Shown in pieces: positions 45,843 through 48,596 of a stretch of 64,000 nt of DNA (the first letter of the stretch is position 1; each line of letters begins with the position of its first letter). The position numbers were made by a program, and so were the translations under genes. Source of the DNA: Candidatus Moraniibacteriota bacterium (GTDB lineage: Bacteria; Patescibacteriota; Minisyncoccia; Moranbacterales; UBA1568). Below the pieces are notes generated by a model that did no database searches, had not been told where the DNA came from, and saw only the letters and a program-made list of their open reading frames with translations. The stretch is taken from NCBI GenBank assembly GCA_013334575.1, contig JAAXXG010000001.1, forward strand, positions 208,315-272,314, written 5' to 3'.

Positions 45843-46091
45843 ATGAAACAGCTCGTTTCCATTCTTTCAATTCTCTTCCTGGTCGGCTGCAGCCAAAACC
45901 AGGAAAGCAAGTACTCCCGTGGAGAAACGGCGGTTGACACGACCGTGGCGGCCTCAAACCAACACGGCTCTACCTCCGCTTCGGTACGGGCAAAAGCGCC
46001 AGAGGGATATCATATCGACTACAAGATCGAAGTGGAGAGTGGGCCGGGATATTCCAGCTCCTCTTCGGAGGTATTCATACGGAGCAAATAG
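45843..46091 (+). CDS. Small lipoprotein (82 aa), hypothetical
   Basis: Signal peptide with lipobox LFLVGC. Ser-rich mature part. Own promoter and terminator. Confidence 0.5.
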   Translation: MKQLVSILSILFLVGCSQNQESKYSRGETAVDTTVAASNQHGSTSASVRAKAPEGYHIDYKIEVESGPGYSSSSSEVFIRSK

Positions 46092-46118
46092 CTGTCCGTG
46101 TACGGCATCAAGATTAAA

Positions 46119-46157
46119 CAGCACTCGATTCATCCGAATACGAGTGCTCTTTTTTAT
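46119..46157 (+). terminator. Rho-independent terminator after lipoprotein gene
   Basis: cagcactcg...cgagtgct hairpin followed by cttttttatt. Confidence 0.65.
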
Positions 46158-46627
46158 TCAAACCGTAGTTCCTCCCACCGGACCGGATCAGTTTCAAGTG
46201 ATGCGAGGGTCGGATGATTCATGTCCTTCTCGGACAGAATCACCCCTTCCGCGATCGGCCAGTCGATACCGAGCACAGAATCGTTCCACGGGATACCGCG
46301 GTCATGATCTCGGGAATAGACGTCGGCGCATTTGCAGGAGAAGACCGTTTCAGGCTTCGTCGTCAGGAATCCGTGTGCGACTCCGCCGCAAAATGCACGA
46401 CCGCGTCGCATTCCGCGACAAGCGGCTTCACGGCCTCCGGATCGGCGATGTCTCCCTTTACGAATCGGGGTCGCGGATTTCCTTCGGCTTCCCTCAAGTT
46501 CTCCAGATTCCCCGCATAGGTAAGCAGATCGAGCACCACGACCTCGTCCTCCGGGTGTTCCCGCAGGACATGATGCACGAAATTCGACCCGATGAATCCG
46601 GCTCCGCCGGTGACAAGCAGTTTCATA
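46154..46627 (-). pseudogene. Chimeric remnant: rmlB 5' portion (codons 1 to about 85) joined out of frame to rmlC 3' portion (last about 75 codons)
   Basis: 46374-46627 is about 95% identical to 45290-45533 (rmlB 5' end). 46146-46375 is homologous to the 3' third of rmlC (48660-48895). The junction sits at shared microhomology (ccgtgYgcga). The two ORF pieces (46363-46671 and 46154-46411) are in different frames. Confidence 0.8.
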
Positions 46628-46775
46628 TTTCGATACGGAAATTGAACGGGATTCGCATCACAAGTACACATGAGTCCTATGGTAGCGAAAACCCGACAAT
46701 CTCAATCATATTCCGAAGAATCGCCCGTTTAAAATCATTATTTTCCCTTATTTACGATAATATTACCGCCTACTA

Positions 46776-46804
46776 TTGACAAAAGCTTAAAAATGGAGTA
46801 TCAT
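46776..46804 (+). promoter_or_regulatory. sigma70 promoter TTGACA-17-TATCAT (cassette 2)
   Basis: Hexamers at 46776-46781 and 46799-46804, upstream of the small TM ORF. Confidence 0.5.
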
Positions 46805-46847
46805 AGAAAGTTGATTTGAATATTACTAACAAAAATAGAAGCCATCA

Positions 46848-47003
46848 ATGTACTATAACATCGAAGTTACCGGCTCGAAGGTCGCGATGTATGTGCTGAC
46901 CTTCATTATGCTCATCGGCAGTTTCGCCGTCGGGCCAAAAATTATCCCGGAGACGGTCTACTATGCGACCGCTCCGGAAATCGTCGTCACGGCCACCAAA
47001 TAG
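46848..47003 (+). CDS. 51-aa single-TM peptide (MYYNIEVTGSKVAMYVLTFIMLIGSFAVGPKIIPETVYYATAPEIVVTATK), hypothetical
   Basis: Hand-translated ORF below the ORF-track cutoff. Own promoter upstream and hairpin plus T-run (47025-47058) downstream. Confidence 0.35.
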   Translation: MYYNIEVTGSKVAMYVLTFIMLIGSFAVGPKIIPETVYYATAPEIVVTATK

Positions 47004-47046
47004 CCGTGCGACGGCAAAAAGTTTCGGTCTCACGCGCCCCCATGCG

Positions 47047-47140
47047 TGCGGCCGATTTTTTTATTTCCCGAACTTCAGCTCCTCCCAACAGGCCGGGTCG
47101 GATTCAAGCGCGGCGAGCGTCGGATGGTTCCGGTCCTTAT
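47047..47140 (-). repeat. Third copy of rmlC 3' end (about 90 bp, 2 mismatches vs 48662-48735), fused downstream of SDR gene
   Basis: cccgaacttcagctcctcccaacaggccgggtcggattcaagcgcggcgagcgtcggatggttccggtcctta is nearly identical to the genuine rmlC terminus. It encodes KDRNHPTLAALESDPACWEELKFGK* right after the SDR stop codon. Confidence 0.8.
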
Positions 47141-47946
47141 TCAGACTCTGCTTCGATGTTCTCTTCCGAGATCGTAACGACCTCACACTGACCGATCGGC
47201 ATGTTGTACTCCCCCGTTTCGGCATCGAATTTCATTCCGGAAAGCGCCATCTTCGATACGATCCGTCCGACAATCTCAGGATCCCTCAAGGCACCCTCTT
47301 GAATGATCTGCGCAGTACGTTTCCTTACGGCACCGCTTCCATGCTCCAAGATGTCCTTGTGCATCCGTGTATCACAAGATCCCGGTATGACCGAAAAAAT
47401 AGCGATTCCTTCATTCTCAGGTCGTTCGGAAAATTCTTGCAGCCATTCTTCTATCCGTTTCTTGGAAACTCCATACGATTCCACCCCTTCAATATTCTTT
47501 GCGGACGAGGACAAAAAGACAACTCGCCCATGAGTTCTTCTCAAAGCCTCTGACGCCTCTCGCGTCATGGCAACCTGCGCCACCTGGTTAACCTTGAACG
47601 TATAATCCAGGCCTTCTGTTATACCTGTCACTGCTGCGTTTAAAATAAGCACGTCGAGACCTTCAAGCTCATCGATACTTTCACGTACGAACCCTGACGC
47701 CGCACGGCGATCCGAGAGATCAACCTGACGAGCGATAACATCTTCGTGCTCGCCAGAAAATTCGACCAGCTTATCTTTGGTCCTCGCACAAATAGCCATC
47801 TCATGTCCATCCGAAGACAATTCCTCGGAAATCGCCCGGCCAATTCCTTCCGTTCCGCCAGTAATGATAATTCGCTTCCGCTCGATTTCATTCGTCACAC
47901 GATTGGGTGCGTACTTTTCTGCAAGGTTCCCGAACATACGCGTCAA
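47137..47946 (-). CDS. SDR-family short-chain dehydrogenase/reductase with non-SDR C-terminal tail derived from rmlC
   Basis: TGGTEGIGRAI Rossmann motif and NAAV...YGVSK (YxxxK). Lower GC than flanking core genes. Last about 20 codons (MPIGQCEVVTISE...) align in frame to rmlC DWPIREGLTISD at the DNA level. Confidence 0.85.
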   Translation of the reverse strand: MTRMFGNLAEKYAPNRVTNEIERKRIIITGGTEGIGRAISEELSSDGHEMAICARTKDKLVEFSGEHEDVIARQVDLSDRRAASGFVRESIDELEGLDVLILNAAVTGITEGLDYTFKVNQVAQVAMTREASEALRRTHGRVVFLSSSAKNIEGVESYGVSKKRIEEWLQEFSERPENEGIAIFSVIPGSCDTRMHKDILEHGSGAVRKRTAQIIQEGALRDPEIVGRIVSKMALSGMKFDAETGEYNMPIGQCEVVTISEENIEAESE

Positions 47947-48127
47947 TTACATTCCCTTATATTCAGTATACACGAGTGATAAATCGACGTGAAACACGAG
48001 TTCGGAAGATAGCGTCCATGTCGATCCAAATCGGAACATCCCGACAATGCATGACTTTCTTCCTGCTAATAGCATTCCGGAAAACCTCAATATTCGGCTC
48101 TGTTAAAGGACTTTACGGTTTGGAACA

Positions 48128-48156
48128 TTGACATGGATTATAAATTAAACCATAAT
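48128..48156 (+). promoter_or_regulatory. sigma70 promoter TTGACA-17-CATAAT (cassette 3)
   Basis: Hexamers 48128-48133 and 48151-48156, upstream of the secreted protein ORF. Confidence 0.5.
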
Positions 48157-48206
48157 GCATAGTCAGTATCAGACGATTGACCGCTTAACAACCAAACCGC
48201 AAAACA

Positions 48207-48596
48207 ATGAAACACTCACCGTTCGCCCTGTCCAAGGCTTATGCCGCCGCAATTATCATGTTCATCTACCTGTTCATCCACCAGGGACCTGTCCACGCCG
48301 AAAGCATCGCGGGTATCAAGCCCAAGGTTTCGATCACCGCGGCATACAACCACTATGGGTTCGAGCCGATTCTGCACGTCGACTATCCAGGGCCATATGA
48401 GGTAAGTACCAGGGAGCTCAATTCAAATGTTGAAATCCGGTACATATGTAACGGGCCGACTGACATAAAGTTATTCTCGCCGGGAGATTTCACTTTTATC
48501 AAGGTGTACGCGCCGGACAAGAATCATAAGGAGACCCTGATCCTGAAGGGGAAAATCAGGAACGATGGTAACAAGACCGTCACGTTCGAGCGATGA
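48207..48596 (+). CDS. Small secreted protein (129 aa) with cleavable signal peptide, hypothetical
   Basis: Signal peptide AAIIMFIYLFIHQGPVHA|ES. Predicted beta-rich mature domain. Own promoter and terminator. Confidence 0.5.
   Translation: MKHSPFALSKAYAAAIIMFIYLFIHQGPVHAESIAGIKPKVSITAAYNHYGFEPILHVDYPGPYEVSTRELNSNVEIRYICNGPTDIKLFSPGDFTFIKVYAPDKNHKETLILKGKIRNDGNKTVTFER

Follow-up and report, generated by a model that had tools for sequence, protein, structure and literature searches.

Three kinds of described system come closest to the locus reported here. Phage morons are independent transcription units spread among phage genomes (PMC3594210); like them, each of our cassettes consists of one small gene with a sigma-70-type promoter and an intrinsic terminator of its own, placed between the genes of another transcription unit, with a lower G+C content than its neighbours, an apparent horizontal spread, and a predicted product of the kind often found in morons, a small lipoprotein or membrane protein. 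Unlike morons, the cassettes reside on a bacterial (CPR) chromosome beside housekeeping sugar-nucleotide genes and not within a phage or prophage, keep to a single slot where morons are scattered, and have a GC3 that matches the host clade. We rejected assignment as phage morons proper, since the neighbours are rml and dcw housekeeping genes and no viral relatives of the cassettes were found in IMG/VR. Orphan arrays of the Rhs, CdiA and T6SS systems (PMC5361080) share with our locus tandem non-homologous modules with a constant gene upstream, a 3'-end fragment of the constant gene adjoining a displaced module (here rmlC fragments of 72 nt beside cassette Y and 233 nt beside cassette X), a proposed origin by homologous anchoring and illegitimate joining, and close strains that differ in module. 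They differ in that RmlC is a metabolic epimerase, and that our modules are convergent with its gene, self-promoted and devoid of an evident effector-immunity logic; as the constant gene is not a polymorphic toxin and no toxin or immunity family was found, we did not class the locus as an orphan effector-immunity array proper. Flexible genomic islands in surface-glycan regions (PMC4033161) likewise combine a fixed position between core genes, unrelated content in each strain, exchange by recombination in conserved flanks, and a setting of sugar or envelope biosynthesis. Such islands hold tens of kb of glycosyltransferase genes, whereas ours spans 0.4-3 kb with one small gene per cassette, and its cargo consists of small ORFan proteins, putatively of the envelope, and not of glycan-synthesis enzymes.

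The window, by which we mean the whole 64-kb stretch of DNA analysed, carries three cassettes, X, Y and Z, in the interval from the rmlC stop codon to the rmlB start codon, a slot of a narrow Moranbacteria (CPR) clade. The three are alternative occupants of this one recombination-prone slot, and here they are stacked. We assign a probability of about 0.72 to the overall reading that they are self-contained, moron-like cassettes of one slot, exchanged between lineages and stacked by homology-anchored and microhomology recombination. The locus comprises:

44532..45533, minus strand: rmlB (rfbB), dTDP-glucose 4,6-dehydratase, the intact left flank (Pfam GDP_Man_Dehyd, 6.7e-92)
45534..45769, no strand assigned: divergent control region, AT-rich (GC about 0.34-0.39)
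45770..45798, plus strand: promoter of X, TTGACA-17-TATAAT (12/12)
45843..46091, plus strand: cassette X gene, predicted 82-aa lipoprotein precursor with signal peptide and lipobox L-V-G-C16
46120..46157, plus strand: terminator of X, hairpin GCACUCG...CGAGUGC with U-run (-19.4 kcal/mol, z -3.9)
46152..46384, minus strand: rmlC 3' fragment, last 77 codons, frame intact, 80% nucleotide identity to 48668-48900
46370..46671, minus strand: rmlB 5' fragment, first 86 codons and decayed upstream region, 94% identity to 45277-45535
46776..46804, plus strand: promoter of Y, TTGACA-17-TATCAT (11/12)
46848..47003, plus strand: cassette Y gene, predicted 51-aa single-pass membrane peptide, hydrophobic segment at residues 12-26
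47024..47066, plus strand: terminator of Y, GC-rich hairpin with U7 (-22.7 kcal/mol, z -2.6)
47069..47140, minus strand: rmlC 3' remnant of 72 nt, 97% identity to 48675-48746, abutting the SDR stop codon
47137..47946, minus strand: SDR gene (Pfam adh_short, 4.1e-30), accompanying Z in the window, L001-L002 and L171
48128..48156, plus strand: promoter of Z, TTGACA-17-CATAAT (11/12)
48207..48596, plus strand: cassette Z gene, predicted 129-aa Sec-secreted protein, signal peptide about residues 1-31, mature form about 98 aa
48619..48658, plus strand: terminator of Z, hairpin AAGCGCUCC...GGAGCGCUU with U-rich tract (-16.9 kcal/mol, z -3.1)
48670..49242, minus strand: rmlC (rfbC), dTDP-4-dehydrorhamnose 3,5-epimerase, the intact right flank (Pfam, 2.5e-71)

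The first-pass annotation had described three unrelated tiny ORFs (82, 51 and 129 aa) for exported or membrane proteins, each with its own promoter and terminator, and our analysis bears this out. Pairwise similarity among X, Y and Z is not detectable (best E 0.9), a near-consensus sigma-70-type site and a hairpin with U-run accompany each of them, and their sequences contain a lipobox (X), a hydrophobic segment (Y) and a signal peptide (Z). Conservation of the ORFs in relatives, which that annotation had made a test of their being genes, is likewise found: they are maintained with in-frame indels only (in five lineages for X, two for Y, and four or more for Z), with dN/dS of 0.28-0.54 for X, 0.50 for Y and 0.64 for Z. 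GC3 is 0.63-0.75 (0.63 in X, 0.75 in Y) against a GC2 of 0.36-0.46, host genes being similar, and the -35 and -10 hexamers with their 17-nt spacing are kept across lineages while the spacer sequence drifts. Maintained ORFs, dN/dS of 0.3-0.6, host-like GC3 and conserved promoter hexamers make the genes look real, and by these sequence criteria X, Y and Z are monocistronic, separately transcribed genes for predicted exported or membrane proteins. The transcription units span roughly 390-720 nt (as measured for X and Z), with A/C-rich leaders of 37-50 nt; no obvious Shine-Dalgarno sequence precedes X, Y or Z, and rpsP in the same window likewise has none. Searches of Pfam, NCBIfam, PHROG and PADLOC gave no family reaching threshold for the three proteins, and Rfam gave no match for the cassettes. 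The roles that the first-pass annotation had put forward, as surface-modulating, bacteriocin-like or host-interaction factors, gain no direct support from these searches. The products are best read as clade-restricted envelope proteins and, judging by their promoters, are probably strongly expressed.

X is a predicted Lgt/Lsp-type lipoprotein. Its N-terminus (MKQLVSILSILFLVG, followed by C16) has a positive n-region, a hydrophobic h-region (maximum at residues 3-17) and a lipobox fitting [LVI][ASTVI][GAS]C, and the stretch VGCSQNQE is invariant in five homologues; weak NCBIfam and PHROG matches cover solely lipoprotein signal regions. One homologue, P0008, carries the JGI label YcfL, which we rejected for X because X has no Pfam family (the Pfam scan within this family covered X alone); in NCBIfam, X and four homologues including P0008 all stay below threshold. 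The Y peptide ends in a conserved C-terminal tail, GPKI(I/L)PETVY.ATAPEIVVTATK. With fewer than 60 aa and one TM segment, Y has the dimensions of a type I toxin-antitoxin peptide, and no known antitoxin RNA family was matched for it. The conserved extracytoplasmic tail of Y is atypical for type I toxins.

The signal peptide of Z, assigned by inspection, has the n-h-c arrangement MKHSPFALSK / AYAAAIIMFIYLFI / HQGPVHA, with an AxA-type cleavage site before E and its hydrophobicity peaking at residues 11-25. P0005 shares all of residues 1-17 (100%), and the 112-aa start given by NCBI is probably too short. Structure prediction, a check that the first-pass annotation had proposed, yielded low-confidence AF2 models: a four-strand beta meander for the mature 66 aa of X (pLDDT 56) and an all-beta protein of eight strands for Z (pLDDT 54). 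Z has in common with SpaA/Cna-B prealbumin-like domains (PF17802) the motif L-x-P-G-D-(Y/F)-T-F...A-P, and a phmmer search matched it to a 3,173-aa adhesin with 22 SpaA domains (E 6.5e-6 over six stretches, a repeat-boosted value); unlike Gram-positive SpaA adhesins, Z would be secreted as a domain on its own and lacks a sorting signal. We did not assign Z to SpaA or Cna-B, as Pfam gave no match at E <= 0.1, and hhalign against SpaA repeats aligned only 20 columns (46% probability).

The region contains 14 promoter-like sites, compared to 4.2 +/- 2.3 in shuffled sequence, and the whole window contains 12 sites scoring at least 11/12, with 0.25 expected. Such promoters are not a hallmark of the cassettes, contrary to the first-pass claim that these lie far nearer to consensus than those of housekeeping genes: 11/12 sites also precede rpsP, rplJ, mraZ, khpA and a cation antiporter gene, and further 12/12 sites lie at 13200, 14844 and 32367. 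The X promoter and its A/C-rich leader are nearly invariant in the window, L005, L009 and L010, and upstream similarity to L005 and L010 ends a few bases before the -35 hexamer. In L006, the Y promoter conserves its hexamers (TTGACA / TATTAT) across a different spacer sequence, and the Y terminator is identical. The Z promoter reaches 12/12 (TATAAT) in L001 and L171, its hexamers and 17-nt spacing being kept in three lineages. The X terminator is conserved in all X cassettes and also folds on the minus strand (-21.8 kcal/mol, z -3.7), so rmlC-type transcripts may be terminated there too; the Z terminator likewise forms a minus-strand hairpin behind rmlC (-23.7 kcal/mol, z -3.0). For rmlB, we find a minus-strand promoter-like site at 45678-45651 (TTAATA-16-TATACT), within a conserved CAGTATACATGA motif; in L001, L007, L009 and L171 this motif is again present ahead of rmlB or the SDR gene.

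The setting had been called a polysaccharide locus, a term that is loose: the neighbours are genes for the dTDP-rhamnose precursor (two rmlA, rmlD, rmlB and rmlC) beside the dcw cluster. We took ATG at 45533 as the rmlB start in preference to TTG at 45602; the RmlB protein is identical to its counterpart in the HGA38 MAG. The DNA separating the small genes, whose content the first-pass annotation had missed, is not spacer but consists of a chimeric rmlB-5'::rmlC-3' pseudogene, the 72-nt rmlC remnant and the SDR gene. Along the minus strand, the array reads rmlC, Z, SDR, rmlC' (72 nt), Y, rmlB'::rmlC', X, rmlB. In the pseudogene (46152-46671), the two parts are fused out of frame at a microhomology junction of about 6-14 nt (46370-46384). 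Its rmlC part covers positions 111-167 of 168 in Pfam dTDP_sugar_isom and differs from the resident rmlC with dN/dS 0.16 and dS 0.78; its rmlB part differs at 17 of 258 nt, 11 of the 17 being third codon positions. The divergence of both parts thus built up under purifying selection, which argues that they came from functional genes of other lineages. The rmlC fragment beside X and the rmlC of the X-carrying L009 encode the same C-terminal tail, although overall the fragment is not nearer to carriers (73-79% to rmlC of known X carriers compared to 80% to the resident gene); we infer that it would have travelled with cassette X. The SDR gene has an atypical GC3 for this genome (0.51) and likely starts at the ATG at about 47937. 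An rmlC remnant analogous to the 72-nt one, of 49 nt, lies behind the SDR gene in L001/L002, from independent samples.

Every homologue found, across about a dozen mostly short contigs of relatives, adjoins the rmlC 3' end, convergent with it and opposite to the rml genes. The search for the same proteins at other loci that the first-pass annotation had suggested thus led back to this slot each time. X occupies it in L005, L007/L008, L009 and L010, Y in L006, and Z in L001-L004, L011, L171 and L172; relatives hold one or two small genes there, with one cassette where the window has all three. In the sister MAG L006, the flanks are 99.1% (to window positions 39752-45534) and 98.8% (to 48675-54610) identical with no indels, and its slot of 443 nt holds only a 53-aa gene of Y type, compared to 3,140 nt in the window. 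Mismatches between the two cluster in the 100-200 nt bordering the slot, with 7 in the first 100 nt on the rmlC side. L009 carries a fourth module (a 63-aa TM ORF) upstream of its X, with an exact 30-nt direct repeat on either side. An empty rmlC-rmlB slot was found in none of the about a dozen related contigs and hence there is no before-and-after pair, so insertion is read from the stacking and the scars.

Divergence of the cassettes is decoupled from that of their surroundings. Between the window and L001, dS is 0.097 for Z and 0.84-1.65 for rmlB, rmlC, the SDR gene and khpA, while identity reaches 91% in the Z promoter region and 89% in its terminator but 71-76% in the flanking genes; this low dS could in part reflect constraint at the nucleotide level and not recent transfer. 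For X compared to L005, L007 and L009, dS is 0.34-0.49 against 1.5-2.1 for rmlC. The reverse holds for Y in L006, with dS 0.40 in the cassette and 0.056-0.074 in the flanks.

In the mechanism and order of events that we infer, cassettes would pass from one lineage to another uncoupled from the flanking genes. The conserved ends of rmlC or rmlB would anchor the incoming DNA, whose second end would be joined homologously or at microhomology (homology-facilitated illegitimate recombination); duplication followed by replacement would be an equivalent route. Successive events may have added cassettes instead of replacing them, either in this genome or in the donor of the 3.1-kb segment. The genes are intact while the co-transferred rml fragments are truncated, which suggests that the cassettes are kept by selection. 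Our best guess at function, and the least secure part of the reading, is that X, Y and Z are strain-variable, highly expressed accessory proteins of the envelope.

The alternative that survives best, though we think it improbable, is that the array is kept since each cassette supplies a distinct protection or recognition function, such as toxin or phage immunity, superinfection exclusion or host recognition. Among exclusion or immunity proteins, small lipoproteins and membrane peptides are typical, and the displaced cassettes are not only intact beside truncated rml fragments but retain strong promoters. In PHROG, X very weakly matches the Cor exclusion lipoprotein, for the most part through the signal peptide (E 0.015), and the locus is laid out in parallel to the orphan arrays of Rhs, CDI and T6SS systems (PMC5361080). 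The cassettes have, however, neither a toxin nor an effector gene associated with them, the constant gene being a sugar epimerase; no PADLOC family or viral relative was found, and dN/dS below 1 gives no sign of positive selection.

Slightly less credible is an assembly artefact, in which single-cassette strains co-existing in the sample were joined via their common rmlC and rmlB ends and no real genome has all three. The window is indeed a MAG contig, a sister population with a single-cassette slot occurs in the same study series (HGA38), the two copies of the 72-nt repeat are 97% identical, and the independent Logan contig L172, in which Z is 100% identical, ends inside that repeat. Yet at the rmlB'::rmlC' junction two unrelated genes share only about 6-14 nt of microhomology, a length that a k-mer assembler could not bridge, and the rml fragments are copies that have diverged (80% and 94%) rather than duplicates that were collapsed. 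The rmlC remnant behind the SDR gene also recurs in the independent samples L001/L002, and stacking is also seen in L009, from an unrelated JGI metagenome.

We give little credence to mobilisation of the cassettes by a site-specific system dedicated to the 3' end of rmlC, in the manner of integron cassettes or integrase-less, cis-mobilisable elements, with the rmlC 3' copies as att-site duplications. Four unrelated modules do share a single insertion point, each adjoining an rmlC 3'-end copy; the modules are arrayed in tandem, and the X cassette of L010 adjoins a DDE transposase gene. The duplicated rmlC pieces, however, range widely in size (49, 72 and 233 nt) and the array has an rmlB::rmlC microhomology join at one junction, a pattern at odds with a fixed core site. 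At this locus, neither the window nor L001, L006 or L007 has a gene for an integrase or recombinase. We rejected integron gene cassettes specifically, since there is no integrase nearby, the repeat search found no attC-like inverted repeats, and each cassette, unlike those of integrons, has its own promoter.

It is likewise very doubtful that the ORFs are incidental and the conserved units regulatory or RNA elements, either small RNAs or strong promoters in antisense orientation with terminators that act in both directions, so as to shield or adjust the expression of rmlC and rmlB. X cassettes do conserve promoter and leader more than coding region, no obvious Shine-Dalgarno sequence precedes the three ORFs, the terminators have minus-strand folds behind rmlC as well, and the rmlB or SDR promoter region lies next to each cassette, but GC3 far exceeds GC2 in the ORF frame, dN/dS is below 1 with indels in frame across lineages, the lipobox, signal peptide and C-terminal peptide tail are conserved as protein, Rfam has no match for the units, and export signals in all three unrelated sequences are not expected by chance.

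Extending the analogy to orphan arrays, the rmlC-rmlB slot might, on a long shot, be a displacement array of a CPR episymbiont, in which alternative, strongly expressed envelope proteins would be gathered and retained by selection and would act as strain-specific protection or recognition factors, against phages or toxins or towards host cells. If this were true, the slot would correspond in function to orphan immunity arrays, but with a housekeeping gene as its anchor and self-promoted, antisense-oriented cassettes as its building blocks.

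In this CPR bacterium, the interval between the rmlC (rfbC) stop and the rmlB (rfbB) start, here called the slot, is a miniature flexible islet whose moron-like cassettes encode ORFan envelope proteins. It holds three small-gene cassettes, for a lipoprotein (X), a membrane peptide (Y), and a secreted protein (Z), and the DNA separating them consists of pieces of both flanking genes, marked rmlC' and rmlB' below. The feature is real, and richer than first described.

45770-45798, plus strand: X promoter, TTGACA-17-TATAAT
45805-45842, plus strand: predicted X leader, A/C-rich, AACAACAAAC
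45843-46091, plus strand: X gene, 82 aa, canonical lipobox MKQLVSILSILFLVG/C (NTW45660.1, HGB18_01225)
46152-46384: rmlC', last 77 rmlC codons, 80% identity to intact rmlC (48670-49242)
46370-46671: rmlB', first 86 rmlB codons plus upstream sequence, 94% identity to intact rmlB (44532-45533)
46776-46804, plus strand: Y promoter, TTGACA-17-TATCAT
46811-46847, plus strand: predicted Y leader, A/C-rich, ACTAACAAAAA
46848-47003, plus strand: Y gene, 51 aa, single hydrophobic segment at residues 12-26 (NTW45663.1, HGB18_01240)
47069-47140: second copy of the rmlC 3' end, 72 nt, 97% identity, abutting the SDR stop codon
47137-47946, minus strand: short-chain dehydrogenase/reductase (SDR) gene
48128-48156, plus strand: Z promoter, TTGACA-17-CATAAT
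48163-48206, plus strand: predicted Z leader, A/C-rich, TTAACAACCAAACC
48207-48596, plus strand: Z gene, 129 aa, n-h-c signal peptide ending VHA/E (NTW45665.1, HGB18_01250)

The three proteins are unrelated, as the first-pass annotation had stated (best pairwise E 0.9), and its reading of the ORFs as genes is borne out: frames are unbroken in every lineage, all indels are in-frame, and dN/dS stays below 1 (X, 0.28-0.54; Y, 0.50; Z, 0.64). GC3 in these ORFs (0.63-0.75) far exceeds GC2 (0.36-0.46), the same as in the host's own genes. Among X homologues the lipobox and the residues after it are invariant, while Y varies conservatively in its transmembrane core and keeps a nearly invariant 22-residue tail; in both, conservation looks protein-like. 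The NCBI annotation of Z (NTW45665.1) gives 112 aa from a start at Met18, so that the signal peptide loses its n-region; the homologous protein P0005 conserves the 129-aa form from Met1 onward, and a Logan assembly calls this form too.

Each gene also has the promoter and terminator of its own that had been claimed for it: TTGACA, 17-nt spacing, and a near-consensus -10 lie 44-51 nt 5' of each ORF, and a hairpin with a U-run follows it (-19.4, -22.7, and -16.9 kcal/mol for X, Y, and Z; z -3.9, -2.6, and -3.1). The promoters fall within AT-rich islands (GC 0.33-0.40 vs 0.58 for the genome), and across lineages their hexamers and spacing are retained while the spacer sequence has changed. They are not, as had been thought, better than any housekeeping promoter, since rpsP, rplJ, mraZ, khpA, and others have near-consensus sites. 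Near-consensus promoters are a genuine feature of the host genome, with 12 sites matching at least 11 of the 12 consensus positions in 64 kb (0.25 expected). No clear Shine-Dalgarno sequence precedes X, Y, or Z, nor rpsP in the window; a TAACAAC leader element, which X and Z cassettes from other lineages conserve, may be a common feature for translation initiation.

Two other perfect promoters stood out elsewhere in the window. At 13200-13605 (plus strand), TTGACA-16-TATAAT (13200-13227) precedes ~370 nt that have no ORF longer than 48 aa and that end, near 13570-13600, in a strong hairpin/U terminator; folding predicts an RNA far more stable than its shuffles (z -5.4), Rfam returned no family match for this stretch, and we list it as a candidate structured non-coding RNA. 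At 14844-14650 (minus strand), AGGAGG and an ORF of three codons (ATG TTT TTT TAA) come after TTGACA-17-TATAAT (14844-14816) and upstream of a 348-aa ORF (13603-14649) without a Pfam family; the three-codon ORF may encode a leader peptide, act as an attenuator, or be due to chance.

Few relatives turned up, most of them on short contigs. A homologue search of 5.8 billion proteins found four for X (62-79% identity), one for Y (70%), and one for Z (87%), and exhaustive HMMER with Z against 1.84 billion representatives added one further orthologue, P0011 (63%). The same proteins were looked for at other loci among metagenome-derived relatives, and all those found are convergent with the rmlC 3' end, on the following contigs:

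L006 (HGA38 Moranbacteria MAG): rmlB, Y, rmlC
L007: rmlB, X, rmlC
L005 and L009: X, rmlC
L010: DDE transposase gene, X, rmlC end
L001 and L002: rmlB, NUDIX, SDR, Z, rmlC
L171: SDR, Z, rmlC
L011: Z, rmlC

In total, 14 contigs carry the L001/L002-type Z protein next to rmlC. L009 adds a fourth module type, a 63-aa single-pass ORF stacked next to the X cassette, with exact direct copies of a 30-nt rmlB-proximal sequence on its two sides. No empty rmlC-rmlB slot occurs among the relatives found. An RmlC search of genome contigs turned up a single close relative, L011, besides 79 RmlC loci too distant to be informative; the RmlC C-terminus had no close relatives among metagenome contigs (at most 67% identity, the clade-specific tail never covered); exact RmlB look-up matched the HGA38 contig only; and X and Z profiles had no relatives among viral contigs. 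On the short contig L010 (19-1014, minus strand; metagenome SRR11449212) a DDE_Tnp_1 transposase gene, not rmlB, adjoins the promoter side of X, which would reflect either an IS inserted into the slot or a relocated X cassette. Away from the slot, L001 carries a 171-aa membrane ORFan (7783-8298, plus strand) that separates khpA from murF, two genes that adjoin each other in the window, and lies on the strand opposite to theirs; the clade may often have opposite-strand ORFans inserted between housekeeping genes in this way.

Comparison with these relatives points to exchange. L006, in which Y alone occupies the slot, is collinear with the window without indels on either side (99.1% over 39752-45534 and 98.8% over 48675-54610); between these blocks it has 443 nt, the window 3,140 nt. 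The few flank mismatches are concentrated in the 100-200 nt next to the slot, as expected if recombination tracts ended just within rmlB and rmlC. Cassette divergence is decoupled from flank divergence, in both directions:

Window vs L001: Z dS 0.097; rmlB, rmlC, SDR, and khpA dS 0.84-1.65
Window vs L005, L007, and L009: X dS 0.34-0.49; rmlC dS 1.5-2.1
Window vs L006: Y dS 0.40; flank dS 0.056-0.074

Against L001, the Z promoter region is 91% and the terminator 89% identical, the flanking genes 71-76%, and terminators and last rmlC codons group by cassette type, not by genome. Y itself is a mosaic at the 100-bp scale, with a 3' half and terminator nearly identical to those of L006 and a 5' half at ~65%.

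On the minus strand the elements run rmlC, Z, SDR, rmlC' (72 nt), Y, rmlB'::rmlC', X, rmlB. The rmlB'::rmlC' join lies inside a stretch reading ...GTGCGA..TCC in both parents and is out of frame, for which reason a functional RmlB-RmlC fusion protein was dropped as an idea. Divergence of rmlC' is mostly synonymous (dN/dS 0.16, dS 0.78), as is that of rmlB' (11 of 17 differences at third codon positions), so that until recently both belonged to genes that worked in other lineages; the rmlC' beside X shares its C-terminal tail with the rmlC of L009, itself an X carrier. The mechanical ORF of intact rmlB (44532-45602, minus strand) has 356 aa and begins at a TTG at 45602; the ATG at 45533, which gives 333 aa, is the start indicated by a GGAG lying 4 nt upstream and by the identity to relatives. 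GC3 is 0.51 in the SDR (47137-47946) and NUDIX (43942-44616) genes, both on the minus strand, and 0.67-0.80 in their neighbours, which suggests that these two do not share the origin of the other rml-cluster genes; in L001 a second NUDIX gene lies between SDR and rmlB.

We infer that DNA from another lineage enters anchored at the conserved rmlC or rmlB end. Were its second end also homologous, the slot content would be replaced; were it not, a microhomology join would displace the resident cassette and, with it, a stub of the flanking gene. This shares the logic of homology-facilitated illegitimate recombination, proposed for Vibrio T6SS orphan immunity gene arrays and for Rhs C-terminal displacement (PMC5361080). 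Tandem duplication of rmlC'-slot-rmlB' at microhomology, then allele replacement, would lead to an identical arrangement and is indistinguishable from illegitimate joining. The 3.1-kb composite may also have been put together entirely in a different lineage before a single import into an L006-like genome. The window is a contig of a Candidatus Moranbacteria MAG whose population is also present in SRR11449211 and SRR11449212, and an independent Logan assembly (L172), matching 47229-48726 at 100%, stops within the 72-nt repeat, as a chimera that stacked the cassettes might lead one to expect; such a chimera is nonetheless unlikely, because the sequence shared at the rmlB'::rmlC' junction is too short for a k-mer assembler, the rml fragments are diverged copies, and comparable scars and stacking occur in independent metagenomes. 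A dedicated site-specific system (integron or att-site model) is likewise unlikely and was dropped, because the duplicated rmlC pieces vary in length (49, 72, and 233 nt), one junction is rmlB::rmlC, and we found neither a recombinase near the locus nor attC-like repeats.

None of X, Y, and Z falls in a family of Pfam, NCBIfam, PHROGs, or PADLOC; the sole matches, all sub-threshold, were to signal peptides of lipoproteins, Cor exclusion and SP_0198 among them. Rfam gave nothing in the cassette region at gathering score or E <= 1. We set aside the JGI label 'YcfL' on the X homologue P0008, as P0008 has no NCBIfam family above threshold and X no Pfam family. AlphaFold2 on shallow alignments predicts, at low confidence, all-beta folds for X (four strands, pLDDT 56) and Z (eight strands, pLDDT 54). 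Foldseek against the PDB matched neither at E <= 0.001, returning nothing for X and non-significant FN3/Ig-like matches for Z (E about 0.1-0.4); the best PDB sequence-profile match was to filamin Ig repeats (E about 0.4). Exhaustive HMMER also gave a repeat-boosted match of Z to a 3,173-aa SpaA-repeat adhesin, whose SpaA/Cna-B repeats have the LxPGD(Y/F)TF..AP motif in common with Z; in hhalign this shrinks to a motif of just 20 residues, and membership of Z in SpaA/Cna-B is therefore not established. Our working view is that X, Y, and Z are highly expressed, strain-variable envelope accessory proteins; with strong promoters intact beside decayed gene fragments, cassette retention argues for selection.

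As uncultivated organisms with tiny genomes, CPR bacteria, Moranbacteria among them, are believed to spend their lives attached to other cells, so their envelope proteins, mostly ORFans, likely interface with hosts and phages. The slot may be likened to replacement/additive islands (PMC4033161), morons (PMC3594210), and displacement arrays (PMC5361080), and its recombination history is unusually legible. It yields three candidate families of strain-variable surface proteins, four counting that of L009, and makes the rmlC-rmlB interval a defined marker for tracking microdiversity in Moranbacteria populations. For annotation it carries a caution, that apparent spacer among small genes can be recombination scars of neighbour genes. 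The locus is a clean, small case of ORFan envelope-gene turnover, in which self-contained promoter-gene-terminator cassettes compete for one slot, cross between lineages whose core genes are synonymously saturated, and can be stacked instead of replaced.
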